From positions 110,916 to 174,915 of the forward strand of contig CAVTXB010000004.1 in assembly GCA_963738535.1 (NCBI GenBank): a stretch of 64,000 bases of DNA, given 5' to 3'. This document shows positions 41,320-63,377 of the stretch, piece after piece. Every line of letters starts with the position of its first letter. The stretch's first letter is position 1. The notes beneath the pieces are model-generated. The model saw nothing but the letters and a program-made list of their open reading frames with translations. It did not search any database and was not told the DNA's origin. The translations under genes and the position numbers were made by a program. The stretch is from an uncultured Actinomycetota bacterium (GTDB lineage: Bacteria > Actinomycetota > Actinomycetes > Actinomycetales > Microbacteriaceae).

Positions 41320-42618
41320 TCAAACGAGGATCGAGATCGGATTCTCGATCCTGCGGGTGAACGCGGCGAGCCACTGGGCGGCCAGTGCTCCATCCACAGC
41401 CCGGTGGTCCACCGAAAGTGTGCATCGCATGACGGTCGCCACGGCCACCGTGCCATCGATCACAACCGGCTGCGGCGTCGCGGCCCCAACAGCGAGAATG
41501 CCCGACTGCGGCGGGTTGAGGATCGCCGAGAACTCCGTCGTGCCGTACATCCCCAGGTTGGTCACCGAGAAGCTGCCGCCCTCGAGCTCGTCCTGCCGGA
41601 GCCGACCGGCACGAGCCCGCCCAGCGAGCTCGGCGACGGTCGCCGAGATCCCGCTCAGGGTCAGCCGTTCGACACCCCGAACGACCGGTGTCAGCAGCCC
41701 GCCGTCGGTCGCGACGGCCACGGCGATGTCGACGGAATCCCACAGGCGCAGGTGCGTGTCGGTCCAGGTGACGTTGGCGCTCGGCACATCGGCGAACGCG
41801 GCGGCGACCGCTTTGATCACGAAATCGTTGACCGAGATCTTGACCGGCGCACTCTCGTTGATCTTCGCCCGCAGGGCGAGCAGCTCGTCGACCCGGCAGT
41901 CGGTCGTGACATAGAAGTGCGGAACGGTCGACTTGCTCTCCGTCAGGCGACGCGCGATGGCCTTCCGCATGCCGGTGTGCGGGATGGCCGTGTAGCCGGC
42001 CCCACTCCCGGTCGTCGGATCGGCGGCGTGCGCGGGGGCCGGGCTCGAGCTGGTCGGGGCGGCGGCAATGGCGGCCTCCACATCCATGCGCACGATGCGG
42101 CCGCCGGGTCCGGACCCGGTGAGCGTGGAAAGGTCGACCCCGTTGTCCCGCGCGCGGACCCGGGCGATGGGGCTGACGAAGAGGCGGGACGGGTGAGCGG
42201 ACGCCTCGGCAGGCTCGGCGACCGGTGCAGGCTCGGCAACCGGGGCTGGCTCGGCGACCGGGGCAGGATCTGTGCCCGCAGCGGCCTCGGCGACCGGGGT
42301 GGGCTCCGGCAGCGACACCGCCTGCGGCTCGCCCGCGGCGATGGTGCCGAGGGCGGCATCGATGTCGGCGTCGGTCTCGCCCTTCGAGATGAGCACCGCG
42401 ATCGGGGCGCCGACCTCGGTGGACTGGCCGGGCTGGGCGATGATGCGGCCCAGGATGCCGTCGTGTTCGGCCGGCAGGTCGACGAGCGCTTTCTCGGTCT
42501 CGACCTCCGCGAGGGTATCCCCGGTCGAGAACGCCGAGCCCTCGGCGACCGTCCAGGCGGAGACCACGGCCTCGGTCGCGTTGGCCAGCACCTCGGGCAT
42601 TCTCAGGATGGTCGCCAT
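41320..42618 (-). CDS. Dihydrolipoamide acyltransferase (E2)
   Basis: EVETEKA lipoyl site, GSGPGGRI binding domain, DHRAVDG active site. Confidence 0.92.
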   Translation of the reverse strand: MATILRMPEVLANATEAVVSAWTVAEGSAFSTGDTLAEVETEKALVDLPAEHDGILGRIIAQPGQSTEVGAPIAVLISKGETDADIDAALGTIAAGEPQAVSLPEPTPVAEAAAGTDPAPVAEPAPVAEPAPVAEPAEASAHPSRLFVSPIARVRARDNGVDLSTLTGSGPGGRIVRMDVEAAIAAAPTSSSPAPAHAADPTTGSGAGYTAIPHTGMRKAIARRLTESKSTVPHFYVTTDCRVDELLALRAKINESAPVKISVNDFVIKAVAAAFADVPSANVTWTDTHLRLWDSVDIAVAVATDGGLLTPVVRGVERLTLSGISATVAELAGRARAGRLRQDELEGGSFSVTNLGMYGTTEFSAILNPPQSGILAVGAATPQPVVIDGTVAVATVMRCTLSVDHRAVDGALAAQWLAAFTRRIENPISILV

Positions 42619-42619
42619 G

Positions 42620-44815
42620 TCAGCGCGAGCCTCCGCGCGACGCGAGCACGAGTTCGAGGCCGGCGACGACCTCTTCGGTCTTCGCAATCGCGGCACGCTC
42701 GAGGATGCGCGAGATGCTCGGGCTGGCCTCGCCGCCCGTGACGCGCTGCACCGGCTGGTCGAGCCAGTCGAAGTAGCGGCGGTGAATCTCGTCGGCGAGC
42801 CAGCCGCCGTACGACGTTCCCCGCGCACCCTGCTCCACGAGCAGCACGTTGTTCGTCTTGCGCACCGATTCGCCGATCGTGTCCCAGTCGATGGATGCGC
42901 GGTCGAGCCAGCGCAGGTCGACCAGGTCGGCGTCGGCGCCGACTCGCTCGATGGCCTCGAGCGAATGCTTGACCATCGACAGGTAGCTGATCACCGTGAC
43001 ATCGTTTCCCTCGCGACGCAGCGCCGCCTTTCCGAGGGGGATGAAGTAGTCGAGGTCGCCGGCCGGGACGTCGTTCATGTCCTGGTACAGGTCGACGTGC
43101 TCGATGACCAGCACCGGATCCTGAAGTGCGAGCGCCGAGTTCATGAGGCCGATGTAGTCGGCCGCGCACGATGGTGCAGCGATGCGCCAGCCCGCGCTCG
43201 TCGCGAAGATGCCGGCGGGATCCATGAGGTGCTGCGAACCGTAGCCCGACCCCATCGCGACCTTGGTGCGCAACACCAGGGGCACCGGGTTCTCGCCGCC
43301 GAACATGTGGCGCGCCTTGCCGATCTGGTTGAAGACCTGGTCGGCGGCGACCCACATGAAGTCGGGGTACATGAACTCCACCACGGGGCGGAACCGACCA
43401 TCCAGGGCCATCCCGCCGCCGAGGCCGGCGAAGGCGTTCTCGCTGATGGGCGTGCCGAGGATGCGGTTCTGTCCGTCGAACTTCCTGGCCAATCCCTTGG
43501 TCGCGCCGTTGGTGCCGCCATTGAGCTTGTGCACGTCTTCGCCGAGCACGATGATGCGGTCGTCCTCGGTCATCCGCCGGTCCATCACCGACGCGACGGC
43601 GTCCACGAACTTGACGCTGTCGGTCGCGCCGCCGAAGGTGGAGGGTTCGAGCGTGCGAACGCCGTCGAGCTCGCTCCCGTCGCCGCGCACCCCCACGTTG
43701 ACGAAGTCGATGTCGGGCCACAGGTCGGGCTTGATGCGCCGTTTGCCTCGATTATCGGGGTCGGCCTCGATGAGTTCGGCCACGGCGTCGGCCATTGCGG
43801 ACTGGGCGCGCTCGCGCACCTGCGCGACTCCGGCCGCGTCGATCCTGCCGAGGGCGATCATCTCTTTCGCAACGCGATCGAGCGGATCGCGCGCACGCCA
43901 CGCGGCCTCCTCCTCCTTGGTGCGGTACCCGAAGGCGCTCCCCGGGTACGGGCCGTTCTGGTGGAAGAAGCGGTAGACCTCGACCTCGATGACGGACGGG
44001 CCGCCACCGCTGCGCATGATCGCTTCCGCCTCTTTCATTGCCAGGTGCACGGCGAGCGGATCCATGCCGTCGACCCGCCAGGCGGGGATGTCGAATCCGA
44101 GCCCGCGAGCCGACAGCCGTGGTTCGCCCGTCGCCTCGAACACGTTGGTCGACACCGCGTAGAGGTTGTTCTCGATGAAGAAGGTGAGCGGCAGTTTCCA
44201 GGCCGACGCGAGGTTCATCGTCTCGAGAACCGAGCCGATGTTCGTGGCCCCGTCGCCGAAGTACGAGACGGTGATGTCGCTCGTCCCCGCGTGCTTCTGC
44301 GACCACGAATTGCCCGCGGCGAGAGGCACCCCTCCGCCGACGATGGCGTTGGTGCCGAGGGCGCCGGCCTCGAACCACTGCAGGTGCATCGAGCCGCCGC
44401 GTCCGCGACAGTAGCCCTGGGCGAGCCCGAGGATCTCGGCGAGGGTGCGCTGCAGCACGGTCTGGATTTCGGGCGAGACCAGGTTGGCGGGGTCGATGAC
44501 CCCGCCGGACACGTGGCCCAGCGCCTTGGCAAGAAACTGGTGGTGGCCGCGGTGGGAGCCGTTGATCGCGTCGGTCGACGTAAGGCCGACGATCGAACCG
44601 ACGGCGCCGCCCTCCTGTCCGATGCTGGAGTGCGCAGGACCGTGAACGAGTCCCTCGCCGGCCAGCTCGAGCACGGTCTCCTCGAACGCTCGGATGAGGT
44701 GCAGCTGGCTGAGGATGGTGCCGAGCAGCGCGGGGTCCGCGGCCTTCCAGTCGGCTGCCGTCGTCGACAGCTCCACCCACGGCGAACCCGGCTCGAGGCG
44801 TCGTCTCTTGGGCAT
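42620..44815 (-). CDS. ThDP-dependent 2-oxoacid/acetoin dehydrogenase-like E1, alpha-beta fusion
   Basis: GDG...ENN ThDP motif in the N-half; GEDV, TPISE and GSQH in the C-half; one continuous ORF. Confidence 0.9.
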   Translation of the reverse strand: MPKRRRLEPGSPWVELSTTAADWKAADPALLGTILSQLHLIRAFEETVLELAGEGLVHGPAHSSIGQEGGAVGSIVGLTSTDAINGSHRGHHQFLAKALGHVSGGVIDPANLVSPEIQTVLQRTLAEILGLAQGYCRGRGGSMHLQWFEAGALGTNAIVGGGVPLAAGNSWSQKHAGTSDITVSYFGDGATNIGSVLETMNLASAWKLPLTFFIENNLYAVSTNVFEATGEPRLSARGLGFDIPAWRVDGMDPLAVHLAMKEAEAIMRSGGGPSVIEVEVYRFFHQNGPYPGSAFGYRTKEEEAAWRARDPLDRVAKEMIALGRIDAAGVAQVRERAQSAMADAVAELIEADPDNRGKRRIKPDLWPDIDFVNVGVRGDGSELDGVRTLEPSTFGGATDSVKFVDAVASVMDRRMTEDDRIIVLGEDVHKLNGGTNGATKGLARKFDGQNRILGTPISENAFAGLGGGMALDGRFRPVVEFMYPDFMWVAADQVFNQIGKARHMFGGENPVPLVLRTKVAMGSGYGSQHLMDPAGIFATSAGWRIAAPSCAADYIGLMNSALALQDPVLVIEHVDLYQDMNDVPAGDLDYFIPLGKAALRREGNDVTVISYLSMVKHSLEAIERVGADADLVDLRWLDRASIDWDTIGESVRKTNNVLLVEQGARGTSYGGWLADEIHRRYFDWLDQPVQRVTGGEASPSISRILERAAIAKTEEVVAGLELVLASRGGSR

Positions 44816-44896
44816 CTGCACGGTCTCCATTGGTCTTGCACGCCTGGTCTTGCACGCCAGCGGGAGCTGACTTCGCGTGACCCGATGTTATCCCTG

Positions 44897-44970
44897 ATTG
44901 AATCCAATACCAACCTAAGTTGGGAGATTTTTCGAGAAAAGTTGCGCAATTGCCGTATCTTTGTATCCAA
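44897..44970. promoter_or_regulatory. Putative GntR/FCD operators ATTGAATCCAAT and TTGTATCCAA
   Basis: Two near-palindromes (44897-44908, 44961-44970) in the divergent E1/VOC-GntR promoter. Confidence 0.55.
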
Positions 44971-45011
44971 TCTGACGAAAAGCGCTCAGGATTCGGACAA
45001 AGGAGTTACGA

Positions 45012-45551
45012 ATGACCATCGGTCTACCCGGCCTGCGCGGTACCGACCACGTCGGCTTCACCGTGCCGAATCTCGAGCAGGCACACGACTTCTTCGTGAA
45101 CGTGATCGGCTGCGAATACGTCTACACACTCGGACCCTTCGACCACCCCGACGAGGGCGACGACTGGATGCTCGAACACCTGGGCGTGCATCCGCGCACC
45201 GTCATGCGCGAACTGCGGTTCTACCGCTGCCGGTTCGGCCCTAACTTCGAGATCTTCGAATACGAGCCCGCGGAGGGCGCAGCACCGGAGCCGCGCAACA
45301 GCGACACCGGCGGTCATCACCTCGCCTTCTACGTCGACGACCTGGACGCCGCGGTCGAGTACCTCAGAGAGAAGAACGTCGAGGTGATGGGCGATCCCAC
45401 GGTGAGTTCGAGCCACAGCACCGGCCAGCGCTGGGTGTACTTTCGCAGCCCGTGGGGCATGCAGTTCGAACTCGTGAGCTTCCCCGGCGGCAAGGCGTAC
45501 GAGGCCGAGGCGACGGTTAAACTGTGGCATCCGGCGCATCCCGCCGAGTGA
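45012..45551 (+). CDS. VOC family protein (CetB/cyclitol epimerase-like)
   Basis: DHVGFTVP, FEIFEY, RNSDTGGHHLAFYVDD and WVYFRSPWGMQFELVS motifs. Confidence 0.8.
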   Translation: MTIGLPGLRGTDHVGFTVPNLEQAHDFFVNVIGCEYVYTLGPFDHPDEGDDWMLEHLGVHPRTVMRELRFYRCRFGPNFEIFEYEPAEGAAPEPRNSDTGGHHLAFYVDDLDAAVEYLREKNVEVMGDPTVSSSHSTGQRWVYFRSPWGMQFELVSFPGGKAYEAEATVKLWHPAHPAE

Positions 45552-45568
45552 CCAGGAACGGACCTTCG

Positions 45569-46234: not shown

Positions 46235-46245
46235 GGTGGCCTCGG

Positions 46246-47445: not shown

Positions 47446-47522
47446 TGCCTGTCCAGTCCGCCGACCACGTCGGCCACGCCATTGTGAATGAGTACAGGCA
47501 CCACTACAGCAATTGTTAACAG

Positions 47523-47541
47523 TGTTTAGTGTCTGTGAACA
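47523..47541. promoter_or_regulatory. Putative XRE-cupin operator TGTTTAG-N5-GTGAACA
   Basis: Upstream of eboE; resembles the sites at 55614, 55637 and 48323/48339. Confidence 0.5.
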
Positions 47542-47606
47542 TTCACGCTAGAACCGTGCGCGGGTGCTGTCAAGCCGAGCGGAACCAGGTCGCGGCGGGC
47601 TCGGCG

Positions 47607-48251
47607 CTAGTGCGTGCGCCCGTGCACGAACCACAGGCCCTCGAACGTGCCCGGGCCCGGGTTGCGCAAGACGTGCGGGATCGCCGAGTCGAAACCGAGC
47701 GACTCGCCCTCGTGCAGCAGGAAGACTTCCTCACCGATGGTGACCTCGAGCTCACCGTGCAGCACGTAGCCGTACTCGTAGCTGTCGTGGGTGGCCAGGT
47801 CTCCCCCTGCCGTGGAGGTCGCGCCGGGCGCGTAGACGATCTTCATGAAGTTCACCGCATGCTCGGGCGTCGCCGCGAGCCGCTCCCACACGACTCCGTC
47901 CGCCATCGTGAGGTGCGGACGGTGTGACGGATGCACGACCGACACCCGGTTGGAGTACTCCGACGGCTGCCAGGCGTTGTTGGGATTCATGCGCCCGGAC
48001 CCGTGCCACTCGTCTTGCGGCTCTCCGCCCGCCGGTGCCGCCGCCGTCGGCTCGCGGGCGTCGAACAGTTCGTCGACCGTCACGCCGAGCAGGCGCGAGA
48101 ACGAGTACAGCGTGGCGACCGAGGGCTGTGACTTGCCGTTCTCGATCTGCGAGATGAACGACGGGGAGACATCCGCCTGGCGCGCGAGTTCACGCAGCGT
48201 CAGGCCGGCCTTCAGCCTGACGTCCTTGAGTCGCTCGCCCAGATTGTCCAT
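47607..48251 (-). CDS. XRE-family HTH + cupin transcriptional regulator
   Basis: LTLRELARQADVSPSFISQIENGKSQPS HTH; EYGYVLHGEL..GESLGFDSAIPH cupin. Confidence 0.9.
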   Translation of the reverse strand: MDNLGERLKDVRLKAGLTLRELARQADVSPSFISQIENGKSQPSVATLYSFSRLLGVTVDELFDAREPTAAAPAGGEPQDEWHGSGRMNPNNAWQPSEYSNRVSVVHPSHRPHLTMADGVVWERLAATPEHAVNFMKIVYAPGATSTAGGDLATHDSYEYGYVLHGELEVTIGEEVFLLHEGESLGFDSAIPHVLRNPGPGTFEGLWFVHGRTH

Positions 48252-48322
48252 GAATTTCCCGATGTTCCGTTGTGTGTGGGTCGAGCGCACAATGCGGCGT
48301 CAAGTGAACAGCGCTGTTCCGT

Positions 48323-48357
48323 ACATTAGCGACACTGCACATTAGCGGCACTGCACA
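48323..48357. promoter_or_regulatory. Tandem 16-bp repeat ACATTAGCG(A/G)CACTGC (putative XRE autoregulatory sites)
   Basis: Copies at 48323-48338 and 48339-48354, each extending into a CTGCACA half-site; palindrome GAACAGCGCTGTTC at 48306-48319. Confidence 0.55.
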
Positions 48358-48555
48358 CGTTGGCCGAGTGGCGTTCGGATGTTGCTCAAATATACACAGC
48401 ACGGCCCATCCGGCGCGGGATTTAGCGAAATCGGCGCCCCGGCGCCGGCTCCGCGCCAATCGATAGCGTTAACTGTCAGAGAACAGTACAGTTGTCACGA
48501 AGCAGCAAGCGGCGGGCCCATCGAGCTGTCGCCGGACCATACAAAGGGGTGTGCA

Positions 48556-49071: not shown

Positions 49072-49095
49072 CCATCCCAACCTGAGGAGAATCCC

Positions 49096-50172
49096 ATGGC
49101 ACCCATCACCGCACCGGGTCGCGCCCTCGTCGTCGGCGCCACCGGCATCGTCGGCCAGACCACGAGCCAGCACCTCGCAGCGGCAGGCTGGGAGACATTC
49201 GGTCTCTCCCGCAGCGGAGGTGCCATCCCCGGCGTGACGGCGGTCAAAGCCGACCTCGCCGACGCCGCCGCGCTCGCGAGCGCGCTCGACGGGGTCGCTC
49301 CCGAGCTCGTGGTCATCACGGCGTGGTCGCGCCAGGCCACGGAAGCCGAGAACATCGCCGTCAACGGCGCGGCGGTTCGAAACCTGCTCGCCGCGCTGAG
49401 CCCCCAGAAGTCGGTCCGGCACGTGGCCCTCATGACAGGACTCAAGCACTACCTCGGACCCTTCGAGGCCTACGCCCAGGGGGTGATGGCAGACACCCCT
49501 TTCCACGAAGAGGAGCCCCGCCAGTCGACCCCCAACTTCTACTACGCGCAGGAAGACGAACTGTTCGCGGCAGCGGAGCGCGACTCGTTCACCTGGAGTG
49601 TGCACCGCTCGCACACCGTCTTCGGTTTCGCCACGGGCAACGCCATGAACATGGTTCTGACGCTCTCGGCCTACGCGACCATCTGCAAAGAGCTCGGCAC
49701 ACCGTTCGTCTTCCCGGGTTCGGCAACCCAGTGGAACAGCGTGACGGATGTCACGGACGGCGACCTGCTTGCCGAGCAGATGATCTGGGCCGGTACGCAC
49801 GAGGCCGGCGCCAACCAGGCCTTCAACACCGCCAACGGCGACGTCTTCCGCTGGCGCTGGCTGTGGCCGCAGATCGCCGCGTACTTCGGCATCGAGTGGG
49901 AGGGCTTCGAGGGCCAGCCTCGCACCCTCGACGCGGCGATGGCCGACAGCGCCGACGTCTGGGCCGCCATCGCGGCGAAGTACGACCTGCGCGAGCCCGA
50001 CATCACCCGGGTGGCGTCATGGTGGCACAGTGACGCCGACCTCGGTCGCGACATGGAGGTGCTGACCGACATGAACAAGTCGCGCAAAGCCGGCTTCCTG
50101 GGGTCACGGGATACCCGCGACAGCTTCTTCCACTACGTGGAGAAATACCGCGAGGCCCGCATCCTGCCGTAG
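49096..50172 (+). CDS. PRISE-type SDR (progesterone 5-beta-reductase/iridoid synthase-like enone reductase)
   Basis: GATGIVG, GLSR, TGLKHYLGPF, NFYYAQED and NGDVFRW motifs. Confidence 0.85.
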   Translation: MAPITAPGRALVVGATGIVGQTTSQHLAAAGWETFGLSRSGGAIPGVTAVKADLADAAALASALDGVAPELVVITAWSRQATEAENIAVNGAAVRNLLAALSPQKSVRHVALMTGLKHYLGPFEAYAQGVMADTPFHEEEPRQSTPNFYYAQEDELFAAAERDSFTWSVHRSHTVFGFATGNAMNMVLTLSAYATICKELGTPFVFPGSATQWNSVTDVTDGDLLAEQMIWAGTHEAGANQAFNTANGDVFRWRWLWPQIAAYFGIEWEGFEGQPRTLDAAMADSADVWAAIAAKYDLREPDITRVASWWHSDADLGRDMEVLTDMNKSRKAGFLGSRDTRDSFFHYVEKYREARILP

Positions 50173-50184: not shown

Positions 50185-51165
50185 TCAGGCGGGCAGCGTC
50201 GCGTCGAACTCGATGTGCGCCTTGATGGTCGTCGCCGGGTGGTGGGCGGCATCGAGCGCGTCGAGCGCGTCGTCGACGCCGAACCTCTGGGTGACCAGGG
50301 GCGTGAGGTCGAGCCCGCTGCCGGCGAGAAACCGCAGGGTCTGCGGCCAGACCCCGGGCGAGCCGATCGACCCGGTGATGCGCAGCTCCTTGGACTGGAT
50401 GAGCCCCAGCTTCGCGGGAGCCTCGCGACCGACATCGATTCCGATGTAGGCGATGCGGCCCTGGAAGGCGACGAGCTCGAGCGAGCGCGCCATGACGTCC
50501 GGGCGACCGCTCACCTCGACCACCAGGTCGGCTCCGCGACCGCCCGTCAGCGTCTCGAGCAGCTCGTCGACACCGGACGGGTCGACCGTGTGCGCGGCGC
50601 CCAGCGAGCTCGCCGCAGCACGACGGTCGGCGGAGGGCTCCACGACCACCGTGACGGCACCCATCGCGGCGGCCGCCGCGGTGACCGCGAGTCCGACCGG
50701 GCCGGCACCAAGGATCACCACGGTGTCGCTCGCGTCCACACCCCCCGCGCGCACGAGGGCGTAGTACGCGACGCTGAACGGCTCGACGAGCGCGCCCATG
50801 GTGTACGAGAGCTCATCCGGCAGCCGGTGCAGCCACGACGGTTTGGCGACGAAGAACTCGGCGGCGGCACCGCTGATCGAGAAGCCGAAGTGGTCGGCGC
50901 CGATGACGCATTCCCCGACCACCCTGTCACCGGGCGAGAACGACGTCACCCTGCTGCCGACCTTGACCACCTCGCCCGACCACTCGTGCCCCGGAATCAG
51001 CGGGTAGTGAAACGGGATGATGTAGCGCCCCTCGAGCAGGTCGATGTCGGAGTGGCACACCCCCACCGAGCGCGCGGCGACCAGCACCTCGTCGTCCGCG
51101 ATCTCGGGGATGACGAGTTCCGCGACGACGGCGTGGTCCTGGGCGGCGTACTGCAATGCTTTCAT
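50185..51165 (-). CDS. Zn-dependent polyol dehydrogenase-like protein lacking the structural-Zn lobe
   Basis: CHSD, GHEWSG, LVEP and GAGPVG; no four-Cys loop. Confidence 0.85.
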   Translation of the reverse strand: MKALQYAAQDHAVVAELVIPEIADDEVLVAARSVGVCHSDIDLLEGRYIIPFHYPLIPGHEWSGEVVKVGSRVTSFSPGDRVVGECVIGADHFGFSISGAAAEFFVAKPSWLHRLPDELSYTMGALVEPFSVAYYALVRAGGVDASDTVVILGAGPVGLAVTAAAAAMGAVTVVVEPSADRRAAASSLGAAHTVDPSGVDELLETLTGGRGADLVVEVSGRPDVMARSLELVAFQGRIAYIGIDVGREAPAKLGLIQSKELRITGSIGSPGVWPQTLRFLAGSGLDLTPLVTQRFGVDDALDALDAAHHPATTIKAHIEFDATLPA

Positions 51166-54781: not shown

Positions 54782-55579
54782 TCAAACGAGGATCATTCCG
54801 CCTTCGATGGGAATCACCTGGCCGGTGATGTAGTCGGAGTCGCTCGACGCCAGGAACAGCGCCGTGGGAACGATGTCTTCGGGCTCGGCCGGACGGCCGA
54901 GAAGGATGTCGGCGGCCATCGAGTCGAAGCCCGCGTCCGCGGCGCCGATCGCGGCGAGGTCTTTGTCGAGCTGGGTCCACAGCGGCGTTGCGACGACACC
55001 GGGCGCGAAGGCGTTGACCGTGATGCGGTCGCCCGCGAACGATCGCGCGGCGGCCTGCGTGAGCGAGATCACGGCGGCCTTCGCCGCGCTGTACGGGGCG
55101 AAATTGGGGAACCCGGTGCGCCCGGCGATCGACGCGGTGTTGATGATCTTGCCCGCGAGGGAGCCGTGGGGTGCCGCACCCTGGGCCAGAAACTGCCTCG
55201 CGGCCTCCTGTGTGCCGATCAGCACGCCGAGAGCGTTGACGTTCATCACCGTGGTGAAGTTCGCCTCGGTGATGTCGAGGAACGTCATGGGCGAATTCAT
55301 CCCGGCATTGTTGAAGAAGACATCCAGCCGACCGAACCGGCGCACGGCTGCCTGGACGGCCAGCACGATCGATTCGCGATCGACGACATCGGCGTGCACC
55401 GCGATCGCCGTTCCGCCGGCCTTCTCGATCTGTTCCGCCACGGCCTCGGCGCCCTCGAGGTTGAGGTCGGCGATGACGACGCCGGCGCCCTCGGCTGCGC
55501 ATCCCCGCGCGATGGCGGCGCCGATACCGGATGCGGCTCCCGTGACCACAATCGTGCGACCGGCGACTCGGATTCCCAT
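54782..55579 (-). CDS. SDR oxidoreductase (acetoin/sorbitol dehydrogenase-like)
   Basis: TGAASGIG, NNAG, YSAAK and APGVVATPLW motifs. Confidence 0.9.
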   Translation of the reverse strand: MGIRVAGRTIVVTGAASGIGAAIARGCAAEGAGVVIADLNLEGAEAVAEQIEKAGGTAIAVHADVVDRESIVLAVQAAVRRFGRLDVFFNNAGMNSPMTFLDITEANFTTVMNVNALGVLIGTQEAARQFLAQGAAPHGSLAGKIINTASIAGRTGFPNFAPYSAAKAAVISLTQAAARSFAGDRITVNAFAPGVVATPLWTQLDKDLAAIGAADAGFDSMAADILLGRPAEPEDIVPTALFLASSDSDYITGQVIPIEGGMILV

Positions 55580-55613
55580 TTCGTCTGCTCCTTCGCAGCC
55601 ATCGTTCGCGGTC

Positions 55614-55655
55614 TGTGCAGTAATACTACACAGTAGTGTTCAGTGTTGCTATACG
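55614..55655. promoter_or_regulatory. Two putative XRE-cupin operators TGTGCAG-N5-CTACACA and TGTTCAG-N5-CTATACG
   Basis: AT-rich intergenic gap upstream of the SDR-M24-ADH operon. Confidence 0.55.
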
Positions 55656-55664
55656 TTCGTCCGG

Positions 55665-58205
55665 CTAGGCGGCGAGCGCCCGCCGTCTCCTGCGCATCCG
55701 CGCAACCGTGTAGAGGATGGCCGCCACGAGAATCAACGCCCCCTGGAAGTAGTACTGGTAGGTCGTGCCCAGCTGCAGGAAATCGGTCGCGTTGAGCGTC
55801 TGCTGCAACAGCACGGCGCCCAGTAGCGTTCCGATGAAACTGCCGCGGCCGCCGAGCAGGCTCGTGCCGCCCAGCACCACCGCGGTGATGCTCTCGAGCG
55901 TGTACGACTGCCCCTGCGTGGGGTCGCCCACCCCGTACTGCCCGATCAGCGTGAATGCGCCGACGAAGACCAGCACCGCGGTCGCGACGTAACCCAGGAT
56001 CACCGTGCGGTTCAGGCTGATGCCGATGCGACGGGACGACTCGGCGTCAGACCCGACGGCGCGCAGCCGCCAGCCCCATCGCCGACGACGCAGGAAGTAC
56101 TCCATCACGATGGTCACCACGACGAGCACGATCATGAACAGCGGGATCGGTCCGAAACTGAGATTGGTGAAGTCCTGCAGGCCCTGCGAGTAGTAGCCGG
56201 CCGGCTGCGGTCGCAGCAGGAGCGCCACGCCACCGAGGGCGATGTACAGCGCCAGGGTCGCCGCGATCGGGGTGAAGCCGGCGAACCTGATCAGCGCCCC
56301 ATTGACGAGGCCGACCGCAGGAGTGCGACGAGCAGCATCAGCACGAGACCCACGACGACCTGGCCGGCGGACTTGTTCGCGTTCATGAAGAACGATCCGA
56401 CGACGACGAGGAACCCGGCGAGCGGGCCGACCGACAGGTCGATTCCGCCGGTCAGCAGCGCGATGGTCTGGCCCAGCGCGATGAAGCCGACGCCCGTCGC
56501 CGCCGTCAGAAGCGTGGTCATGTTGAAGTTCGACAGGTACGCGGGGTTCTGGCTGACGAGGTAAGCCGCCAGCGCGACGATCACCACGGCCACCAGGGCG
56601 CTCGGCGCGTAGTCGCCCTGGATGAAGCGACGGGCGCCCGACGAGCGGGTCGCCTGCGGGGCGGCCTGCGCGACATTGACGGCCTGTGTCGTGGAGCTGA
56701 CCGCTGCCGTGACAATGCGCTCCTCGGTGATGTCATCACCCACCAGGGTTGCGACGACGTGGCCTCGTGACATGACCAGCACCTGGTCGCAGAGCCCTTC
56801 GAGCTCCTTCGCATCGGACGACGCCACGATGACCGGGATGCCGCGACCCGGAGGCCTCGCGAAGAATCCCGTAGATGTCGGCGCGCGCACCGACATCCAC
56901 GCCCTGGGTCGGTTCGTCGGCGATGAGCAGTACGGGATCCGACAGCAGGGCGCGCGAGATGACGACCTTCTGCTGGTTTCCGCCGGACAGCGACGAGACT
57001 GCGGCATCCATCGACGGCGCCCTCACCGAGAGCGACGCGAGCGACGCGCCGACCTGGTCGAGCTCCTTGGCTCGGCTCACGAACAGGAAGCTCTTGAATT
57101 TCTTGAGGGCAGCGATGGCGGCGTTCTCGCGCACCGACAGGCTCATCATGAGGCCCTCGCCGTGCCGGTCAGCGGGCATGAATGCGGCGCGCGACAGCAG
57201 GCGGTGGCCGTCGAAGGCGTGGCCCTCGATCTCGACGGTTCCGTCGAACGATTCGAGACCGGCCAGGGCGCGCAGCACCTCGCTCTGGCCGTTGCCGACG
57301 ACACCCGCGATACCGATGATCTGCCCGCGCTGGGCCTCCGTCGACACGTCGATGAAACCGGGTCCGCCGAAGTGTGCCAGGCGGAAGTTCACGGGGGCAT
57401 CAGCGACCGAGACGTGTTTGGGCGGGAAGGTCGAATTCAGCTCGCGCCCGACGATCAGGGCGAGCAACTCGCTGTCGGTGATGTCGGTCACGGCGGAGGT
57501 GCCGCGCACCTTGCCATCGCGCAGCACGGTCACACGGTCTGCGAGCTCGCGCACCTCCGCCATGCGATGCGTGATGTAGGTGACCGACGTTCCCGTCGCC
57601 ACGATCTCGCGAACCCGTGCGAACAGCAGGTCGACGGCGTCGCCGCCGAGCGGCGCGGTCGGCTCGTCGAGAATCAGCAGCTTGGGTTTGATCGCGAACG
57701 CCTTCGCGATTTCCAACAGGTGCTTCTGGGCGACGGTCAGAGTCTCGACTCGGTCGCCCGGATGCACCGTCAGGTCCACACGCGCGAGCATGTCGCGTAC
57801 CGCGGCGTCCGCGTCTCCTGCGAACAGGCTGGCGGGCAGGGCGACACGCAGATTCTCTTCCACCGTCAGGTCGGGAAGAACGGCGGGGTGCTGGTGAACG
57901 ATCGCGATCCCGAGCGACGCGGCGAGCCCCGGACTCAGCGCGCCGAGGGCCGTGCCCTCGAAGACCATGGTGCCGGCGTCCGGCTGCGCTGTGCCCGATG
58001 CGACATTCATCAGCGTCGACTTGCCGGCCCCGTTCTCGCCGAGGATGGCGTGCACTTCGCCGGGACGGATCTCGACCGAGACGTCGGTCAGGGCAGCGAC
58101 GCCCGAGTAGTACTTCGAGATGCCGCGCATCTCCAGGGTCGCTTGCGTCGTGACGACGGTCTCGGACTGCTTCACTTCGGTGTGCCTTCGCGTTTCTTGG
58201 GGCAT
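55665..58205 (-). CDS. Fused sugar ABC (CUT2) dual ATPase + permease, frameshifts near 56848 and 56320
   Basis: GENGAGKST, LSGGNQQK and DEPTQGVD, then SSDAKEL continuing without a stop into GGIDLSVG and VVLGGTSLLGGRG permease motifs. Confidence 0.8.
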
Positions 58206-58271
58206 GAGGGTGCTGGGCCAGCCGAGCCGCCCAGGATTTCCCTGGCCGGCCCGGCTGGCTGCAGCGGAGGA

Positions 58272-59369
58272 CTACTTGCTGAGTGCTGCCTGCTGCGCGC
58301 CGGGCATCTGCGCGGACAGGTAGACGTCACCCGGCAGGCTGGGCTGGCAGTCGACGGGCTTGCTCGGATCGGTCGAGTCTTCGAAGACCGGGCCCTTGAA
58401 CGAGTCGGCCGTCGGGACGGCACCACCGGTCGCCTTGGCGACCGCGTAGTCCACGGCGAGACGCACGTTGTCGTTACCGGTTGCGACCGTCATCATCTTG
58501 AACGGGGTCGCTGCCTGGGCGTCCTTCCAGTAGCACGCGAGCGAGTTTCCGTCAGACGTGGCGAGAGCCGGAATGGCGCGTCCGCTCTTCGGGAACAGCG
58601 GAAGCGAGCTCACCAGGGTGGGACCGAAGTCGGAGATGATGACGTCGATCTTCGGGTACTTGGCGATGGCCGCCGACAGGAGGGTCTGCGTCAGCGTCGG
58701 GTCCCAGTTGGTGGGCACGAACGGGGTCTGGTCGATGAACGTGTAGTCGCTGCCGACCACCTTCTTCACCGCGTTGTACTCGGTCACACTCTGGCTGTTG
58801 CCAGCGGGGCCGCCCATGAACAGGATGTTGCCGCCCTTGGGAACGTTCTTCTCGATCCAGTTGCCCCAGTTGGTGCCGTCGTTGGCGAAGTCGTCACCGA
58901 TCCACTTGGTGTAGTTGACGCCTGCCGTGCCGCCGGGGAACACGCGGTAGGGAACCGTGACCACGCCGGCCTTGTAGGCCGCGGTGAGGGCCGGAAGTAC
59001 CGCCTTGCCCGCGTCGGGGAAGACGACCATCGCGCCGACACCGGTCGAGACCATGCCCTTGATGTCGGAGATGGCCTTCTGCGTGTTGCCCTGGCCGTCG
59101 GCGTAGAGGAACTTGGTGACGCTCGGGCACTTCTGGGCTTCCTGCTTTCCGGAAGCGGTCGTGACCAGGCGCCAGCTGTTGCCGCCGAAGCCGTCGAGGA
59201 GTGCGAACGAGATCTTCTTCGTTCCACACCATGAGGGGGCGCCGGCAACGTGAGTGACTTTGCTGCTCGTGCCGCCGGCGGTCGAACCTGTGCTGCTACA
59301 ACCAGACAGGATGAGGGAGACGGAAGCGACGGCGATCGCGACCATTCCGATCTTGGTGCGAGGTTTCAT
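58272..59369 (-). CDS. Ribose/CUT2-type ABC substrate-binding lipoprotein
   Basis: LSGC lipobox, GGNSWR and GGPAGNS motifs; AGAGG RBS. Confidence 0.88.
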   Translation of the reverse strand: MKPRTKIGMVAIAVASVSLILSGCSSTGSTAGGTSSKVTHVAGAPSWCGTKKISFALLDGFGGNSWRLVTTASGKQEAQKCPSVTKFLYADGQGNTQKAISDIKGMVSTGVGAMVVFPDAGKAVLPALTAAYKAGVVTVPYRVFPGGTAGVNYTKWIGDDFANDGTNWGNWIEKNVPKGGNILFMGGPAGNSQSVTEYNAVKKVVGSDYTFIDQTPFVPTNWDPTLTQTLLSAAIAKYPKIDVIISDFGPTLVSSLPLFPKSGRAIPALATSDGNSLACYWKDAQAATPFKMMTVATGNDNVRLAVDYAVAKATGGAVPTADSFKGPVFEDSTDPSKPVDCQPSLPGDVYLSAQMPGAQQAALSK

Positions 59370-59439
59370 TTGTTTTTCCTCCTATTGACGCGCAACGCCT
59401 CTGTTACGCGGGTCGGCGACGATCGCCGGTGGGTGTTTT

Positions 59440-59485
59440 AGTGGTGGTCTTCGGTGGTGGATTGAGTGGTGGTCTTCGGTGATGG
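59440..59485. repeat. Intergenic direct repeat AGTGGTGGTCTTCGGTG(G/A)TGG x2
   Basis: Copies at 59440-59460 and 59465-59485. Confidence 0.6.
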
Positions 59486-59488
59486 TGC

Positions 59489-60571
59489 TCAGGTCGAGAC
59501 GGTGGGCACGAACCGCTGCCGCCCGGTGACCCGGGCCCAGACCGCGGCCCAGTTGACGGTGTACAGCGAGACACCGACGGCGAGCGCGATCGCCTGGATG
59601 ATGGTCTGGATCGCGGTCGAGACACCGAGTTCCAGCACGAACTGGTGGAGCTGCTCGAGGAACAGCGCGGCGATGACCGTCGAGAGCGGGAAACCGCGGC
59701 CGCCGAGCAGCGAGGTGCCTCCCAGCACCACGACCGCAACGGAGATGAGCAGGTAGCTGTCGCCCTCGAAGGCAGACGGCTGGGCCGTGATTCCCGCAAT
59801 CATGATGCCGGCCACGCAGTAGAGCAGCTGCGCCCAGACGTAGGCGGATGACCGGTGCAGCCTGACTCGGAGCCCCACCGCGCGCGCCGCGCGCGGGTTC
59901 GCGCCCACCGCTTCGAACCGGCGGCCCGCCACCGTGCGACGCACCAGCACCGTGACGAGCACGAGGGCGCCGAGGGCGAAGAAGACAGCGTTCGGGATGC
60001 CGAATGCCGAACCGCCGGTGATGGAGGCCAGCAGCGTGGTCGTGATGTACGGGTGCCCTCCCGAGATCGTGAGGTTGACGCCGTAGAGCACCGCGTTCAT
60101 GCCCAGGGTCGCGATGATCGGGTTGAGACCGAGCACGCCGATCATGAGTCCGTTCAGCACTCCGGCGACGATTGCGAACGCCAGCGCGAGCAGCACGTTG
60201 GGGAGCAGCTGGGAGTTAACGCCGTCGGGGTTGTGGGTGACGATGACGATGGCCAGCGACATCCCGCCGGCGACCGAGAGGTCGATGCCGCCCTGCTGGA
60301 TCGCGAGCATCTGGCCGAGCCCCGCGACCGCGAGCACGGCGGCGATGGGAAGCACACCCCCGGAGAGCGATGTGCCCGACACACTCGACGGGGCGATGAT
60401 CGCGCTGAGGATGTAGAGCAGCACCGTGGCGGTGCCAATGGTGATGAGCCCTTTGGAAATGGAAAAGCGCGCGGACTTCAGCCCCGTCACTTCCCGCTTC
60501 GTTGCGTCAGCCATTCGTGCTCCAGGTTGGTCATCCGCAACTTCGATGTGGCGAGATGTGTTGAGCGTCAC
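59489..60571 (-). CDS. Sugar ABC (CUT2) permease
   Basis: GGIDLSV, IIATLG, GANPRAARAVG and VVLGGTSLLGGRG motifs. Confidence 0.9.
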   Translation of the reverse strand: MTLNTSRHIEVADDQPGARMADATKREVTGLKSARFSISKGLITIGTATVLLYILSAIIAPSSVSGTSLSGGVLPIAAVLAVAGLGQMLAIQQGGIDLSVAGGMSLAIVIVTHNPDGVNSQLLPNVLLALAFAIVAGVLNGLMIGVLGLNPIIATLGMNAVLYGVNLTISGGHPYITTTLLASITGGSAFGIPNAVFFALGALVLVTVLVRRTVAGRRFEAVGANPRAARAVGLRVRLHRSSAYVWAQLLYCVAGIMIAGITAQPSAFEGDSYLLISVAVVVLGGTSLLGGRGFPLSTVIAALFLEQLHQFVLELGVSTAIQTIIQAIALAVGVSLYTVNWAAVWARVTGRQRFVPTVST

Positions 60572-60727
60572 TTTACAAAACTCCGTATCTGTTCACAATA
60601 GGTTTCGAATATTGGTTGCAAATTGTGTTGTTGGGAAGGCGGATTTGCAGGGTTTCTGAGCGAAAAAAGGCATTTCCGTTCGGTTGGTGCGGAAGGCGGG
60701 GTGTTAAGCCTGACGAATCCTGAGCGT

Positions 60728-61073
60728 TCAGTGAGACGAATGGTGGTCGATCCAGAGACCGACAAAGTTCACCCGGCCGACATTGCCCAGCACATGCGGC
60801 AGCGTCGAAGAGAAAACGATGGAGTCGCCCGCGCCGAGCACCGTGACACGCTGCCCGACAGTGACCTGGACCTCACCCGAGATGCCGAACCCCTATTCGT
60901 GGCCGGTGCGGCTGACCAACTCTCCGCCCGGTGCCGACATCGCTCCGGGCGCGTAGACGATCTGCGAACGAAACGACGCCGAGACATCCGCCTGCACCGC
61001 GGGTTGCTGCAGCGAGAGGCCCTGCTCGCGCCGCGAGCTGCGCAGTCGCGCGCCGAGCGTCGTCGCCCGCGGG
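60728..61073 (-). pseudogene. Decayed XRE-cupin regulator paralogue (internal deletion and TAG stop)
   Basis: Manual translation TTLGARLRSSRREQGLSL..QADVSASF.SQ/IVYAPG..HE*GFGISGEVQVTVG..GDSIVFSSTLPHVL..FVGLW aligns to 47607..48251. Confidence 0.8.
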
Positions 61074-61102
61074 ATCGAATCCCTGGGCCGTCGATCGCAC
61101 GG

Positions 61103-61981
61103 TCAGGCACCCAGCGGGTGTTGCTTTCGCGTGACTTCCGCCGTCGCCGACCAGTCGAGCTCGGCAAGCTCGGGGTCATGCAGGGTCGCAGCGTAGACCT
61201 GCTGAAGCACCGGCACCGACGGCAGGGCGAGGCCGTGCTCGTCAGCCGCCTGAGACACCAGCCCGAGGTCCTTCGCTCCGAGTGCGACAGTGAACTTCGG
61301 CTCGTAATCCCGCTCGGCGATCAGCTTGCCGTAGCCCGTGTACGCCGAGCCGGTGAACGCGACATCCGTGATGATTTCGACGAAGGTCGACGCATCCACA
61401 CCCCCGGCCTCGACCAGCGTCAGCGACTCCGCGAGCGCCTGGATCGCATGGATCAGGGTGAAGTTGACGGCGAGCTTCACGAGATTGGCGGTGCGCGGCG
61501 CGGACCCGAGGTTCCAGGTCTGCTTGCCGAGCACGTCGAGGTAGCGCTGCACCGACCCGATCGCGGCGGCGTCTCCTGCCGCGACGATGTTCAGCTGGCC
61601 GTCTGCGGCGACGTTCGGTCGGCCGAGCACCGGCGCGGCGACGTACCCGATTCCGAACTCGGCGTGCAGGGCCGCCTGGGCGTCGGCCGTCTGCACCCCC
61701 ACGGTGGCCATATTCACGTGCAGCGAGCCCGCGGGCGCTGCGGCGAGAACGTGCCGGCTGAACACCGAGGTCACTGCCGCGTCGTTCGCCAGCATCGAGA
61801 ACACCGGGCCTGCCGCGAACAGGTCGACCGGATCGTCGACCGCAATGGCCCCCTCGTCGACGAGCTCGTCGACGGGCCCCCGCGACCGGTTCCAGACGCG
61901 CACCGTGTGCCCGGCGGAGATCAACCGTCGGGCCATCCCCGACCCCATGCTGCCAAGCCCGGCGAACGTCAGCTCAGCCAT
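61103..61981 (-). CDS. Beta-hydroxyacid dehydrogenase family (6PGD/3-HIBADH-like) NAD(P) oxidoreductase
   Basis: GLGSMGSGMA, VWNRS, AAPVLGRP and VKLAVNF motifs. Confidence 0.88.
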   Translation of the reverse strand: MAELTFAGLGSMGSGMARRLISAGHTVRVWNRSRGPVDELVDEGAIAVDDPVDLFAAGPVFSMLANDAAVTSVFSRHVLAAAPAGSLHVNMATVGVQTADAQAALHAEFGIGYVAAPVLGRPNVAADGQLNIVAAGDAAAIGSVQRYLDVLGKQTWNLGSAPRTANLVKLAVNFTLIHAIQALAESLTLVEAGGVDASTFVEIITDVAFTGSAYTGYGKLIAERDYEPKFTVALGAKDLGLVSQAADEHGLALPSVPVLQQVYAATLHDPELAELDWSATAEVTRKQHPLGA

Positions 61982-62000
61982 GAATGCACTCTTCCATCGT

Positions 62001-63377
62001 CTACGCCTTCCAGATCGTCTTGAGGTTACAGAATTCGCGGATGCCCGCGGCGGCGAGTTCCCGGCCGTACCCGGAGTCCTTGATGCCGCCGAACGGCAGC
62101 TCGGGATACGACACGGTCATCCCGTTGATGAACACGGCGCCGGCATCCAGCTCCGCCGCGAACCGGTCCTGTTCTGCTTCGTCCGAGCTCCAGATGGCGG
62201 AGCTCAGTCCGAAGGTCGTGCCGTTCGCCAGGCGGATCGCCTCCTCGGCGGACTCGACCCGGTACAGGGTCGCCACCGGCCCGAAGGTCTCCTCGAGGTG
62301 GATGCGCATGGCGGGCGTCACTCCCGCGATGACCGTCGGCGGATAGAACCAGCCCGGTCCATCCGGTGTAATGCCGCCGGTCAGGGCCGACGCCCCTTTC
62401 GCCAGCGCGTCGTCGACGAGCTCGACCAGGTCGTCGCGCCCGCTCTCGGTCGCGACCGGGCCGACATCGGTGGTCTCGAGCATGGGATCACCGAGCCTCA
62501 GTGCCGCCATCCGACTGACGAAACTCTCCGTGAATCGCTCGTAGACATCGGAGTGCACGATGAATCGCTTCGCGGCGATACACGACTGACCGTTGTTTCC
62601 GGTGCGGGCGTTGACCGCGACCCGCGCGGCCTCCTCGATGTCGGCAGACGGCATGACGATGAACGGATCGGACCCGCCGAGTTCCAGCACCGCCTTCTTG
62701 ATCTGCTGCCCGGCCGACTGCGCCACCGCCCGCCCCGCCGGCTCGGAGCCGGTCAGGGTCACCGCCTTGATGCGCCGGTCGGTGATCACCGCATCCACCT
62801 CGCGCGACCCGATGAGGAGTGTCGAGAATGCTCCCTCGGGGAAGCCTCCGCGGGTGAAGACCGCGTCGAGATAGAGGGCGGACTGCGGCACGTTCGAGGC
62901 GTGCTTCAGCACCCCGGCGTTGCCCGCCATCAGCGCGGGTGCAGCGAACCGCACGACCTGCCAGAGCGGGTAGTTCCACGGCATCACGGCGAGCACGACG
63001 CCGAGGGGTTCGTAGCGGGCGAAGGCCCTCGAGGCGCCGACATCAGCGGGGGTTGCGAGCGGCTCATCGGCGAGGAACTTCGCGGCATTCGCGGCATAGA
63101 AGCGCATGTTCTTCGCGCACTTCAGCACCTCGGCACGGGCCGAGACCAGCGTCTTGCCCATCTCGCGGGTGAGGATCGGAGCGACCTCGTCGACCTCGGC
63201 CTCGAGCAGCCGCGCTGTGGCGAGCATCCACGCCGCCCGCTCGTCGTAGGTCGTCGACCGCAGTGCGGCCACGGCCGCGACCGCCCGTTCGATTCGACGG
63301 TCGACCTCCTGGGCCGTGTGCGGCTGGAAGGTCTTCTCGACGACGCCGGTTGCGGGGTTGGTTGATGAGATGGCCAT
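62001..63377 (-). CDS. gabD: NADP-dependent succinate-semialdehyde dehydrogenase-like ALDH
   Basis: MPWNYPLWQVVRFAAP, LKHASNVP, ELGGSDP and GQSCIAAKRF motifs. Confidence 0.85.
   Translation of the reverse strand: MAISSTNPATGVVEKTFQPHTAQEVDRRIERAVAAVAALRSTTYDERAAWMLATARLLEAEVDEVAPILTREMGKTLVSARAEVLKCAKNMRFYAANAAKFLADEPLATPADVGASRAFARYEPLGVVLAVMPWNYPLWQVVRFAAPALMAGNAGVLKHASNVPQSALYLDAVFTRGGFPEGAFSTLLIGSREVDAVITDRRIKAVTLTGSEPAGRAVAQSAGQQIKKAVLELGGSDPFIVMPSADIEEAARVAVNARTGNNGQSCIAAKRFIVHSDVYERFTESFVSRMAALRLGDPMLETTDVGPVATESGRDDLVELVDDALAKGASALTGGITPDGPGWFYPPTVIAGVTPAMRIHLEETFGPVATLYRVESAEEAIRLANGTTFGLSSAIWSSDEAEQDRFAAELDAGAVFINGMTVSYPELPFGGIKDSGYGRELAAAGIREFCNLKTIWKA

Follow-up and report, generated by a model that had tools for sequence, protein, structure and literature searches.

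We analysed a 64,000-nucleotide (nt) window of contig CAVTXB010000004.1 from an uncultured Microbacteriaceae bacterium (assembly GCA_963738535.1, below G000), which ends in an island of genes running from position 41320 to about 64467, past the end of the window. The island is best explained, with moderate confidence on our part, as a conserved catabolic unit that would convert a neutral polyol to acetyl-CoA and succinate in two stages. We are highly confident that it is one real, conserved unit, and it is likely to serve the catabolism of an imported neutral polyol-like compound; that this compound is a cyclitol is a tentative assignment. Since the window has a G+C content of ~68%, genes were chosen by third-position G+C; the chosen genes were searched against Pfam and NCBIfam profiles, and sequence relatives were also sought in the Protein Data Bank (PDB). 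The features of the island are as follows.

41320..42618, minus strand: E2 acyltransferase, with lipoyl (PF00364), E3-binding (PSBD, PF02817) and catalytic (PF00198) domains
42620..44830, minus strand: fused E1 alpha-beta (E1ab), dependent on thiamine diphosphate (ThDP), 736 residues; PF00676, PF02779, PF02780
44898..44970, no strand: two TTGNATCCAA boxes in the divergent E1ab/VOC1 promoter, a putative GntR/FCD operator
45012..45551, plus strand: VOC1, single-domain glyoxalase fold; PF13669, PF00903
45524..46234, plus strand: GntR/FCD regulator, overlapping the end of VOC1; PF00392, PF07729
46246..47445, minus strand: EboE-type xylose-isomerase-like TIM barrel; NF035939 at full length, 388 bits against a cut-off of 250
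47607..48290, minus strand: XRE helix-turn-helix (HTH) and cupin regulator, divergent from VOC2-PRISE; PF01381, PF07883
48379..49071, plus strand: VOC2, glyoxalase fold; PF00903, PDB 3l7t and 6bu2
49096..50172, plus strand: PRISE-family enone (activated C=C) reductase; PF22917, 70.5 bits against 27
50185-51165, minus strand: ADH1, Zn-dependent polyol-type dehydrogenase; PF08240, PF00107
51193-52257, minus strand: ADH2, Zn-dependent polyol-type dehydrogenase; PF08240, PF00107
52259-53317, minus strand: ADH3, Zn-dependent polyol-type dehydrogenase; PF08240, PF00107
53366..54745, minus strand: M24 pita-bread protein with a Cys in its metal site; PF00557, aligned to prolidase 3q6d
54782..55579, minus strand: classical short-chain dehydrogenase/reductase (SDR) of the acetoin reductase/butanediol/polyol dehydrogenase type; PF13561, PF00106
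55665..58205, minus strand: fused CUT2 ABC ATPase, with two nucleotide-binding domains (NBDs), and permease; three open reading frame (ORF) pieces on consecutive parts of the profiles
58272..59369, minus strand: CUT2-type solute-binding protein (SBP); PF13407
59489..60571, minus strand: CUT2 permease, AraH-/YtfT-like, first gene of the long minus-strand operon; PF02653
60731..61102, minus strand: relic of a second XRE-cupin regulator gene, seen by tblastx
61103..61981, minus strand: beta-hydroxyacid (HIBADH-family) dehydrogenase; PF03446, PF14833
62001..63377, minus strand: NADP-type succinate-semialdehyde dehydrogenase (SSADH); PF00171, NF006915
63418..~64467, minus strand: PanE/ApbA-like 2-oxoacid reductase, 349 residues, reaching past the window end (L086:1418-2467); PF02558, PF08546

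An earlier note on this DNA had listed these gene classes, and the Pfam, NCBIfam and PDB searches found all of them in their places, with two corrections: the ATPase and the second permease form a single fused gene, and the unit runs past the window with a conserved PanE/ApbA-like reductase. Its statement that sugar kinase, aldolase, iolD and oxygenase are missing also held, as the profile search of 41320-64467 found no kinase, aldolase, IolD or oxygenase domain. The same search found no IolG (Gfo/Idh/MocA), IolC kinase or IolJ aldolase domain in the island. The long minus-strand operon has the order permease-SBP-ATPase/permease-SDR-M24-ADH3-ADH2-ADH1, and the M24 gene sits within this transporter-dehydrogenase operon at intergenic gaps of 36-48 nt. 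The neighbouring FMN reductase (40238-40858), EamA and AMP-ligase genes were rejected as island members because they are not conserved near M24 elsewhere.

Conservation was counted over 80 genome loci, each comprising an M24 ortholog and 10 kb on either side. E1ab, VOC1 and GntR accompany M24 at 42-43 of these loci (VOC1 together with E1ab at 42, GntR at 43), HIBADH at 37, ADH1 at 32, PRISE at 27, PanE-like relatives at 26 and the SBP at 25. EboE is found at seven, each time with PRISE. Both halves of the island, that of E1ab and that of the polyol genes, are present together at 16 loci; the E1ab half stands alone at 26 and the polyol half at 11, the last count being limited by flank length. 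Four loci have the full set, EboE included, within 10 kb: those of Nocardioides mangrovicus and Cryobacterium glucosi and two in metagenome-assembled genomes (L014, L018, L024, L057). The earlier note had taken a lack of co-occurrence in other genomes as the result that would speak against a unit; the full set recurs in at least six further places belonging to several families, and this objection therefore falls away.

One of these copies is in a complete genome of 1.35 Mb and 47% G+C (G216; loci L093, L094 and L095, G216:C1:1184000-1228000), which carries the whole set at 50-75% protein identity and no additional enzyme. There the island is bordered by dnaX-recR-ask-asd on one side and by genes for an aldehyde dehydrogenase (ALDH), a permease, upp and malic enzyme on the other. 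We propose that the unit has spread horizontally and consists of two co-travelling stages. Among culturable type strains, C. glucosi and N. mangrovicus hold the full island and Galbitalea soli holds the feeder half. In size and G+C, genome G216 resembles freshwater acI-type plankton.

Across a class sample of 301 genomes, the M24 family is present in 60, fused E1ab in 28, PRISE in 15 and an EboE-like gene in 19. An M24-family gene is carried by 25 of the 27 other genomes with fused E1ab, and in every pair compared by position E1ab and M24 lie on one contig at most ~25 kb apart. Five of five genomes lacking fused E1ab have a split E1 alpha gene no more than 2 kb from M24; M24 and the ThDP E1 are therefore tightly coupled. 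The search with fused E1ab had raised E1/E2 as an optional add-on, which we rejected in view of the split E1 alpha genes beside M24. The M24/ThDP-E1/E2/HIBADH/ALDH core is modular and travels with differing feeder genes, its neighbours elsewhere also including a 235-residue SDR, ATZ/TRZ-type amidohydrolases, a second M24 and other CUT2 importers. One such alternative context (L081:8330-21266, L083:8340-20388 and L085:4037-9960, M24 at 81-84% identity) comprises a bicupin, the 235-residue SDR, one or more ATZ/TRZ-type amidohydrolases, RidA, a Liv-type ABC or MFS importer, a second M24, HIBADH and XRE-cupin. This context suggests an N-containing or phenolic compound that converges on the same M24 step.

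Modularity of this kind could mean that the island is a mosaic, in which the M24/E1/E2/HIBADH/ALDH core acts on a small substrate of its own (phenolic, N-containing or charged) and the polyol genes are merely adjacent or form a separate system. The 26 loci with the core and no polyol genes, set among very different neighbours (bicupin, ATZ/TRZ-type amidohydrolases, RidA, Liv-type ABC importers), are what a mosaic would produce, as are the two different regulators of the two halves. Genome G005 is a further case, with EboE, M24 and PRISE 3 Mb from a fused E1ab that has its own M24 paralog nearby. However, a mosaic sits poorly with the close packing of the M24 gene inside the transporter-dehydrogenase operon, and the two halves occur together in at least seven places, including the streamlined 1.35-Mb genome, where nothing is inserted between them. 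The polyol half alone, moreover, reaches no recognisable central metabolite. We consider a mosaic distinctly improbable, and keep to a two-stage unit for polyol catabolism.

The importer at the head of this unit is complete for a CUT2 system, with a Peripla_BP_4 SBP, BPD_transp_2 permeases and an ATPase with two NBDs. In this assembly the ATPase, a middle piece and the permease C terminus lie in frames A, B and A, the reading frame being broken by a surplus base in a G-run near 56846 and by two more near 56320. Homologues of the ATPase-permease are encoded in a single frame, with an 831-residue fusion called in L084. The surplus bases are missing from contigs of four independent runs, of which two are moss metagenomes and two are labelled by organism; the contig pieces, of up to 1.5 kb and >99% identity, differ from the assembly by three indels, at window positions 55662, 56320 and 56846. 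The two frameshifts in the ATPase-permease gene are assembly errors, and the gene is therefore intact in nature. On the same two grounds, single-frame homologues and the four runs, we rejected the importer as a pseudogene. The G000 assembly scores only 60% complete, with poor long-ORF cover on many contigs, much of C12 and parts of C4, and given its completeness and indel errors, frameshifts elsewhere in G000 are to be distrusted. Fusion of the ATPase to the second permease is natural in other loci too, at ~830-845 residues (L084:6482-8977, L001, L004, L007, L008, L013), and is an unusual architecture among CUT2 importers.

These data bear on whether the island is decaying, with a pseudogene for an importer and a pathway that no longer works in this organism. 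Beyond the two frame changes in the ATPase-permease, the relic XRE-cupin gene at 60731-61102 would agree with decay: it consists of an HTH piece, an in-frame stop and a cupin piece, its linker is missing, and its tblastx matches are the XRE-cupin genes of L001-L004, L014, L018 and L024. So would a second full copy of the island in G000 (contig C12:10939-33686; L087, L088), with 81% DNA identity, in which nearly every gene is spread over 2-5 frames. The gene order of this copy differs slightly, with HIBADH and SSADH between importer and SDR, and PanE next to EboE. Its in-frame pieces retain 83-95% protein identity where the DNA is 81% identical, a sign of purifying selection. This copy probably reflects poor contig quality, or a second strain in the bin, and not an old array of pseudogenes. 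With the extra bases at ~56846 and ~56320 missing from four independent runs, and with poor long-ORF cover on many contigs of a 60% complete assembly, as indel errors predict, we regard decay as extremely unlikely.

Two sets of sequence elements accompany the two halves. TTGNATCCAA has exactly two matches in the 64 kb, even with one mismatch allowed, and both lie in the 180-nt intergenic region between E1ab and VOC1. A survey of 93 loci found the box in 30, and where loci were compared by position it lies in the same E1ab/VOC1 intergenic region in L001, L084, L085, L093 (the 47%-G+C genome) and the C12 copy. These boxes are good candidates for a putative GntR/FCD operator. FCD-type GntR regulators usually sense carboxylates. 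In the XRE-cupin promoter, a perfect palindrome, GAACAGCGCTGTTC, is located at 48306-48319, upstream of XRE, and GAACA/TGTTC-type elements are common to the promoters of eboE (47446-47606), XRE/VOC2 (48291-48378), SDR (55580-55664) and the first permease (60572-60600). A GTGAACA-type half-site is enriched, at 10 matches against 4.2 expected, with three of the 10 in island promoters; this is no more than suggestive, and statistical support for the shared elements is weak. The palindrome and the GAACA-type elements may be the XRE-cupin operator.

Stage 1 would be encoded by the long minus-strand operon together with VOC2-PRISE and the EboE-like gene, probably under XRE-cupin control. In the scheme that we infer (its substrate and step order as well as what M24, the EboE-like protein, VOC1, VOC2 and E1 catalyse), the CUT2 ABC system would import a neutral polyol, for which a cyclitol or deoxy-cyclitol is the likeliest candidate. 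Oxidation by the SDR and the Zn-dependent dehydrogenases would give keto forms, which the TIM-barrel and VOC proteins would isomerise or dehydrate alpha to the carbonyl, yielding a conjugated enone or dione whose C=C bond PRISE would reduce, and the Cys-site M24 would make the substrate of E1. Our preferred guess for M24 is a retro-Claisen hydrolysis in which a hydroxy-cyclohexane-1,3-dione is opened to yield an acyloin acid, for example 4-hydroxy-5-oxohexanoate. Ring hydrolysis followed by acyloin cleavage in this specific form is doubtful.

Stage 2 would be formed by the E1ab-E2/VOC1-GntR divergon, with its two TTGNATCCAA boxes, and by HIBADH-SSADH-PanE. The ThDP/lipoyl complex, with an E3 supplied by the host, would split the acid by acetoin-type cleavage into acetyl-CoA and a C4 semialdehyde (succinate semialdehyde), which SSADH would oxidise to succinate. 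VOC1, the HIBADH-like and the PanE-like enzymes may adjust stereochemistry and redox state, VOC1 by epimerising the acyloin.

Both E1 and E2 are nearest to the acetyl-transferring pyruvate dehydrogenase (PDH) type, and the ALDH lies above the SSADH equivalog cut-off (NF006915, 762.7 bits against 730). The best families for E1ab are PDH-type and below cut-off (E1 alpha 230 bits against 394, E1 beta 221 against 454); E1 beta has the PDB relative 1ik6 at 1e-52, and the ThDP motif GDG...NN is intact at residues 192-222. The closest NCBIfam family of E2 is the PDH acetyltransferase TIGR01349, at 416 bits against 445. E2 likely starts at the Met at ORF residue 71, one base past the E1 stop, and keeps the lipoyl-Lys motif and the DHRAVDG motif (residue 474 of the long ORF). 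No E3 (dihydrolipoamide dehydrogenase) is encoded in 41320-64467; E3-like genes are present elsewhere in the genome, at C14:179778-181172 (346 bits) and on C8. A further dihydrolipoamide-dehydrogenase-like gene (G000:C2:151802-153159) is in five frame pieces, likely through assembly error. Of the remaining stage 2 enzymes, the PanE/ApbA-like reductase scores 151 bits against 141 for TIGR00745, every curated family is below cut-off for the HIBADH-like protein, and VOC1 is weakly similar to methylmalonyl-CoA epimerase in the PDB.

The M24 protein has the metal site D, C, H, E, E, in which Cys291 replaces the second Asp and the other four ligands are retained. It departs from the metal-ligand set of prolidase and aminopeptidase P (Asp, Asp, His, Glu, Glu) at this second Asp, and in the alignment to prolidase 3q6d, Trp364 replaces the substrate His, a position that is mostly Trp. 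D280, C291, H357, E390 and E405 are invariant in 67 orthologs, and a paralog shares the Cys. Identity is 80-90% across Microbacteriaceae, Mycobacteriaceae, Nocardioidaceae, Amycolatopsis and Streptomyces. The best curated family is DddP (NF043017), at 103 bits against 600. The DddP DMSP lyase (PDB 4S00, 4RZY, 4B28), creatinase and the ectoine hydrolase DoeA share the pita-bread fold and act on non-peptide small substrates. The island protein differs from DddP in its score, its invariant Cys for the second metal Asp and its substrate His being mostly Trp, and nothing in its genomic context relates to DMSP, creatine or ectoine.

A paralogous trio of HIBADH-like, M24b and ALDH genes lies 117 kb downstream on the same contig (G000:C4:281330-284969; L089:5330-8969). 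M24b is 53% identical to the island M24 and 77% to the second M24 of L081, and is of the type of the paralog that adjoins fused E1ab in many other genomes.

The EboE-like protein of stage 1 has no PDB relative by sequence; its AlphaFold (AF2) model is a xylose-isomerase-like TIM barrel (predicted local distance difference test, pLDDT, 86.7). Fold matches are UlaE (L-xylulose-5-P 3-epimerase), ketose 3-epimerases, xylose isomerase, the dehydroshikimate dehydratase AsbF and TM0416, enzymes that all act next to the keto group of a sugar or cyclitol. Island-type EboE (49-68% identity) is found in 11 other genomes, in two as fragments only; nine of the 11 have it within 15 kb of an M24 ortholog, on one contig. 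At 30-37% identity, the other EboE-like genes of the class are more distant, and the island EboE is a separate, island-specific subfamily.

EboE also invites a comparison with biosynthesis, in that the island could be an ebo-like cluster making a modified cyclitol or a meroterpenoid-type metabolite. The protein is above the NCBIfam cut-off, and PRISE and VOC enzymes are generally known from natural-product pathways. The ebo pathway starts from a deoxy-inosose, and ebo genes make thallusin from a cyclitol (10.64898/2026.05.21.724671). Unlike the ebo cluster (EboA-F), however, the island has EboE in a separate subfamily beside M24 and in a catabolic context, and the window holds no other ebo gene: no eboB, eboC (UbiA prenyltransferase), eboF, other prenyltransferase or cyclase was found among its genes. 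The SBP-dependent importer, the FCD-type regulator, the PDH-like complex and SSADH all speak for breakdown. We disfavour a biosynthetic cluster as very unlikely, and return to polyol catabolism.

PRISE matches plant progesterone 5-beta-reductase and iridoid synthase at full length (E 1e-77 to 1e-66). Its best PDB relative is 6el3 (E 1.4e-77, residues 9-358), an extended-SDR fold, and it retains the catalytic Lys/Tyr motifs TGLKHYLGPF and NFYYAQED and the NADPH motif GATGIVG (pattern GxxGxxG). The earlier note had called one VOC protein CetB/valiolone-epimerase-like; the best PDB relatives are methylmalonyl-CoA epimerase for VOC1, as given above, and SMU.1112c/YaeR-type proteins for VOC2. The VOC2 domain begins at residue 65, which leaves the true start codon uncertain. 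We know of no bacterial catabolic role for a PRISE reductase, an EboE paralog, a Cys-site M24 or a single-chain E1 alpha-beta.

IolM (scyllo-inosose 3-dehydrogenase, NF041097) scores 186 bits for ADH1, 175 for ADH2 and 139 for ADH3 against a cut-off of 450; no curated family scores higher for ADH1 or ADH2, and ADH3 is best matched by threonine dehydrogenase. The best family of the SDR is TIGR02415, at 247 bits against 304. PDB relatives of the SBP (4pe6, 4yv7, 4irx) are weak and mixed, too much so for a ligand to be read from them. One of them, 4yv7, is a mycobacterial polyol-type SBP.

The same architecture could serve an acyclic polyol, vicinal diol or deoxy-sugar, converted to a (hydroxy)methyl acyloin or diketone and cleaved as by acetoin dehydrogenase, with no carbocycle involved. 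The SDR family just named is that of acetoin reductase/2,3-butanediol dehydrogenase, the Zn-dependent enzymes belong to the sorbitol/threonine/butanediol dehydrogenase group, and CUT2 SBPs, to whose polyol type the weak relative 4yv7 belongs, commonly bind acyclic polyols; the EboE-like protein, too, is dispensable in most loci. Yet a simple diol or acyloin route would leave PRISE, the TIM barrel and two VOC proteins without a function, and the M24 step would go unexplained. The island-specific EboE subfamily points to keto-cyclitol chemistry, and an equivalog-level SSADH implies a C4 semialdehyde product. An acyclic substrate is rather unlikely on this evidence.

The earlier proposal of a cyclitol substrate stands in part. 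In its favour, though indirectly, are the dedicated EboE subfamily with its fold relatives and its link to the deoxy-inosose chemistry of the ebo pathway, IolM as the best family for ADH1 and ADH2, and the lack of iolD above cut-off in five island genomes. Several observations weigh against the cyclitol assignment and the wider two-stage reading. The IolM similarity, far below cut-off, is generic for the ADH family, and the weak, mixed SBP relatives include no ligand-bound protein that points to a substrate. Of the 27 loci with PRISE, 20 lack the EboE-like protein, which therefore cannot be essential. Four to six dehydrogenases exceed the needs of the scheme. About 12 loci hold M24 with no E1 within 10 kb, and the M24/E1 core is also found apart from polyol genes, beside deaminase-type amidohydrolases, a bicupin, RidA and Liv-type or MFS importers. 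To our knowledge, no protein of the M24 fold has yet been demonstrated to act as a C-C hydrolase. The suggestion that M24 or E1 opens the ring, also made in the earlier note, found no specific support, the core occurring beside amidohydrolases, a bicupin and Liv-type importers where polyol genes are lacking.

We compared the island with known systems. The acetoin dehydrogenase system (AcoA/AcoB/AcoC/AcoL) and the 2,3-butanediol dehydrogenases resemble it in that a ThDP E1 and a lipoyl E2 are clustered with an SDR and a Zn-ADH, and the chemistry expected from this likeness would be cleavage of an acyloin to acetyl-CoA and an aldehyde. In contrast to that system, E1 alpha and beta of the island are fused, no E3 is in the cluster, and the E2 catalytic domain is canonical and nearest to PDH E2. 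The island adds the Cys-site M24, PRISE, the EboE-like protein, VOC proteins, a sugar-type importer and SSADH, none of which acetoin needs, and its regulators are XRE-cupin and GntR.

The inositol pathways of Thermotoga maritima (IolG, IolM, IolN, IolO) and Bacillus (IolG, IolE, IolD, IolB, IolC, IolJ) follow a similar logic, in which an imported cyclitol is oxidised with NAD, undergoes a TIM-barrel step and is opened without O2. The likeness to Thermotoga extends to IolM as the best family for ADH1 and ADH2 and to the match of the EboE-like model with TM0416 at the level of fold. However, the island lacks IolG, IolD, kinase and aldolase, its IolM scores are 186 and 175 bits against 450, and its PRISE, M24 and E1/E2 steps have no counterpart there. 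No iolD above cut-off was found in five island genomes (G000, G216, G087, G005, G158).

In Aromatoleum (Azoarcus) anaerobium, the BqdLMS hydroxybenzoquinone dehydrogenase is a PDH-like multienzyme that cleaves a six-membered carbocycle independently of O2 (PMC10084136). The island resembles this resorcinol pathway, by description, in its PDH-like multienzyme. According to the earlier note, the Azoarcus cluster also pairs that complex with an M24 protein and a beta-hydroxyacid dehydrogenase. It differs in lacking the RehLS Mo-hydroxylase, the BtdLS membrane hydroxyhydroquinone dehydrogenase, E3 and sigma-54 regulators, and its host, an actinobacterium of aerobe type, has a sugar importer. The reductive phloroglucinol pathway comprises phloroglucinol reductase, dihydrophloroglucinol cyclohydrolase, 3-hydroxy-5-oxohexanoate dehydrogenase and triacetate acetoacetate-lyase, with no M24 mentioned (PMC10470551). 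Its logic is similar to that of the proposed scheme, with reduction of a ring enone or ketone, hydrolytic opening of a 1,3-dione, and oxidation and splitting of a C6 oxo-acid. The families differ at every step: PRISE against SDR reductase, M24 against cyclohydrolase, and E1/E2 against BKACE-type lyase. That no described pathway has this whole gene set, as the earlier note had stated, is borne out by a literature search, which found none and covered no primary papers on the Azoarcus resorcinol cluster.

A more specific route, which we consider improbable, would need no oxygenase and would lead from a (deoxy)cyclitol by way of hydroxyquinol-level intermediates to acetyl-CoA and succinate. The EboE-like and VOC proteins would dehydrate a deoxy-inosose to the keto-tautomer of hydroxyquinol, which PRISE would reduce to a hydroxy-cyclohexane-1,3-dione. 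The Cys-site M24 would be a new C-C (beta-diketone) ring hydrolase yielding 4-hydroxy-5-oxohexanoate, and the fused E1 with E2 would split this in the acetoin manner to acetyl-CoA and succinate semialdehyde. Reductive hydroxyhydroquinone degradation is reportedly known from the physiology of Desulfovibrio inopinatus, with its genes unassigned; were the hydroxyquinol route true, the M24/E1/E2/SSADH core would be the missing gene set for it.

Whatever its identity, the substrate is probably an abundant natural compound, since the gene set is common and survives intact in a streamlined 1.35-Mb genome. This set has four enzymes of the unassigned kinds named above. It is found widely among Actinobacteria of soil, moss/peat and freshwater, and turnover of its substrate has not yet been mapped to genes.

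PRISE homologues also occur alone, at 60-72% identity (G141:C1:841996-843060, G250:C1:2212483-2213544 and G003:C17:348649-349698; L090-L092). Their genomes have no M24 match at E <= 1e-100, and no island gene lies within 10 kb of PRISE. Bacterial PRISE enzymes therefore have further roles.

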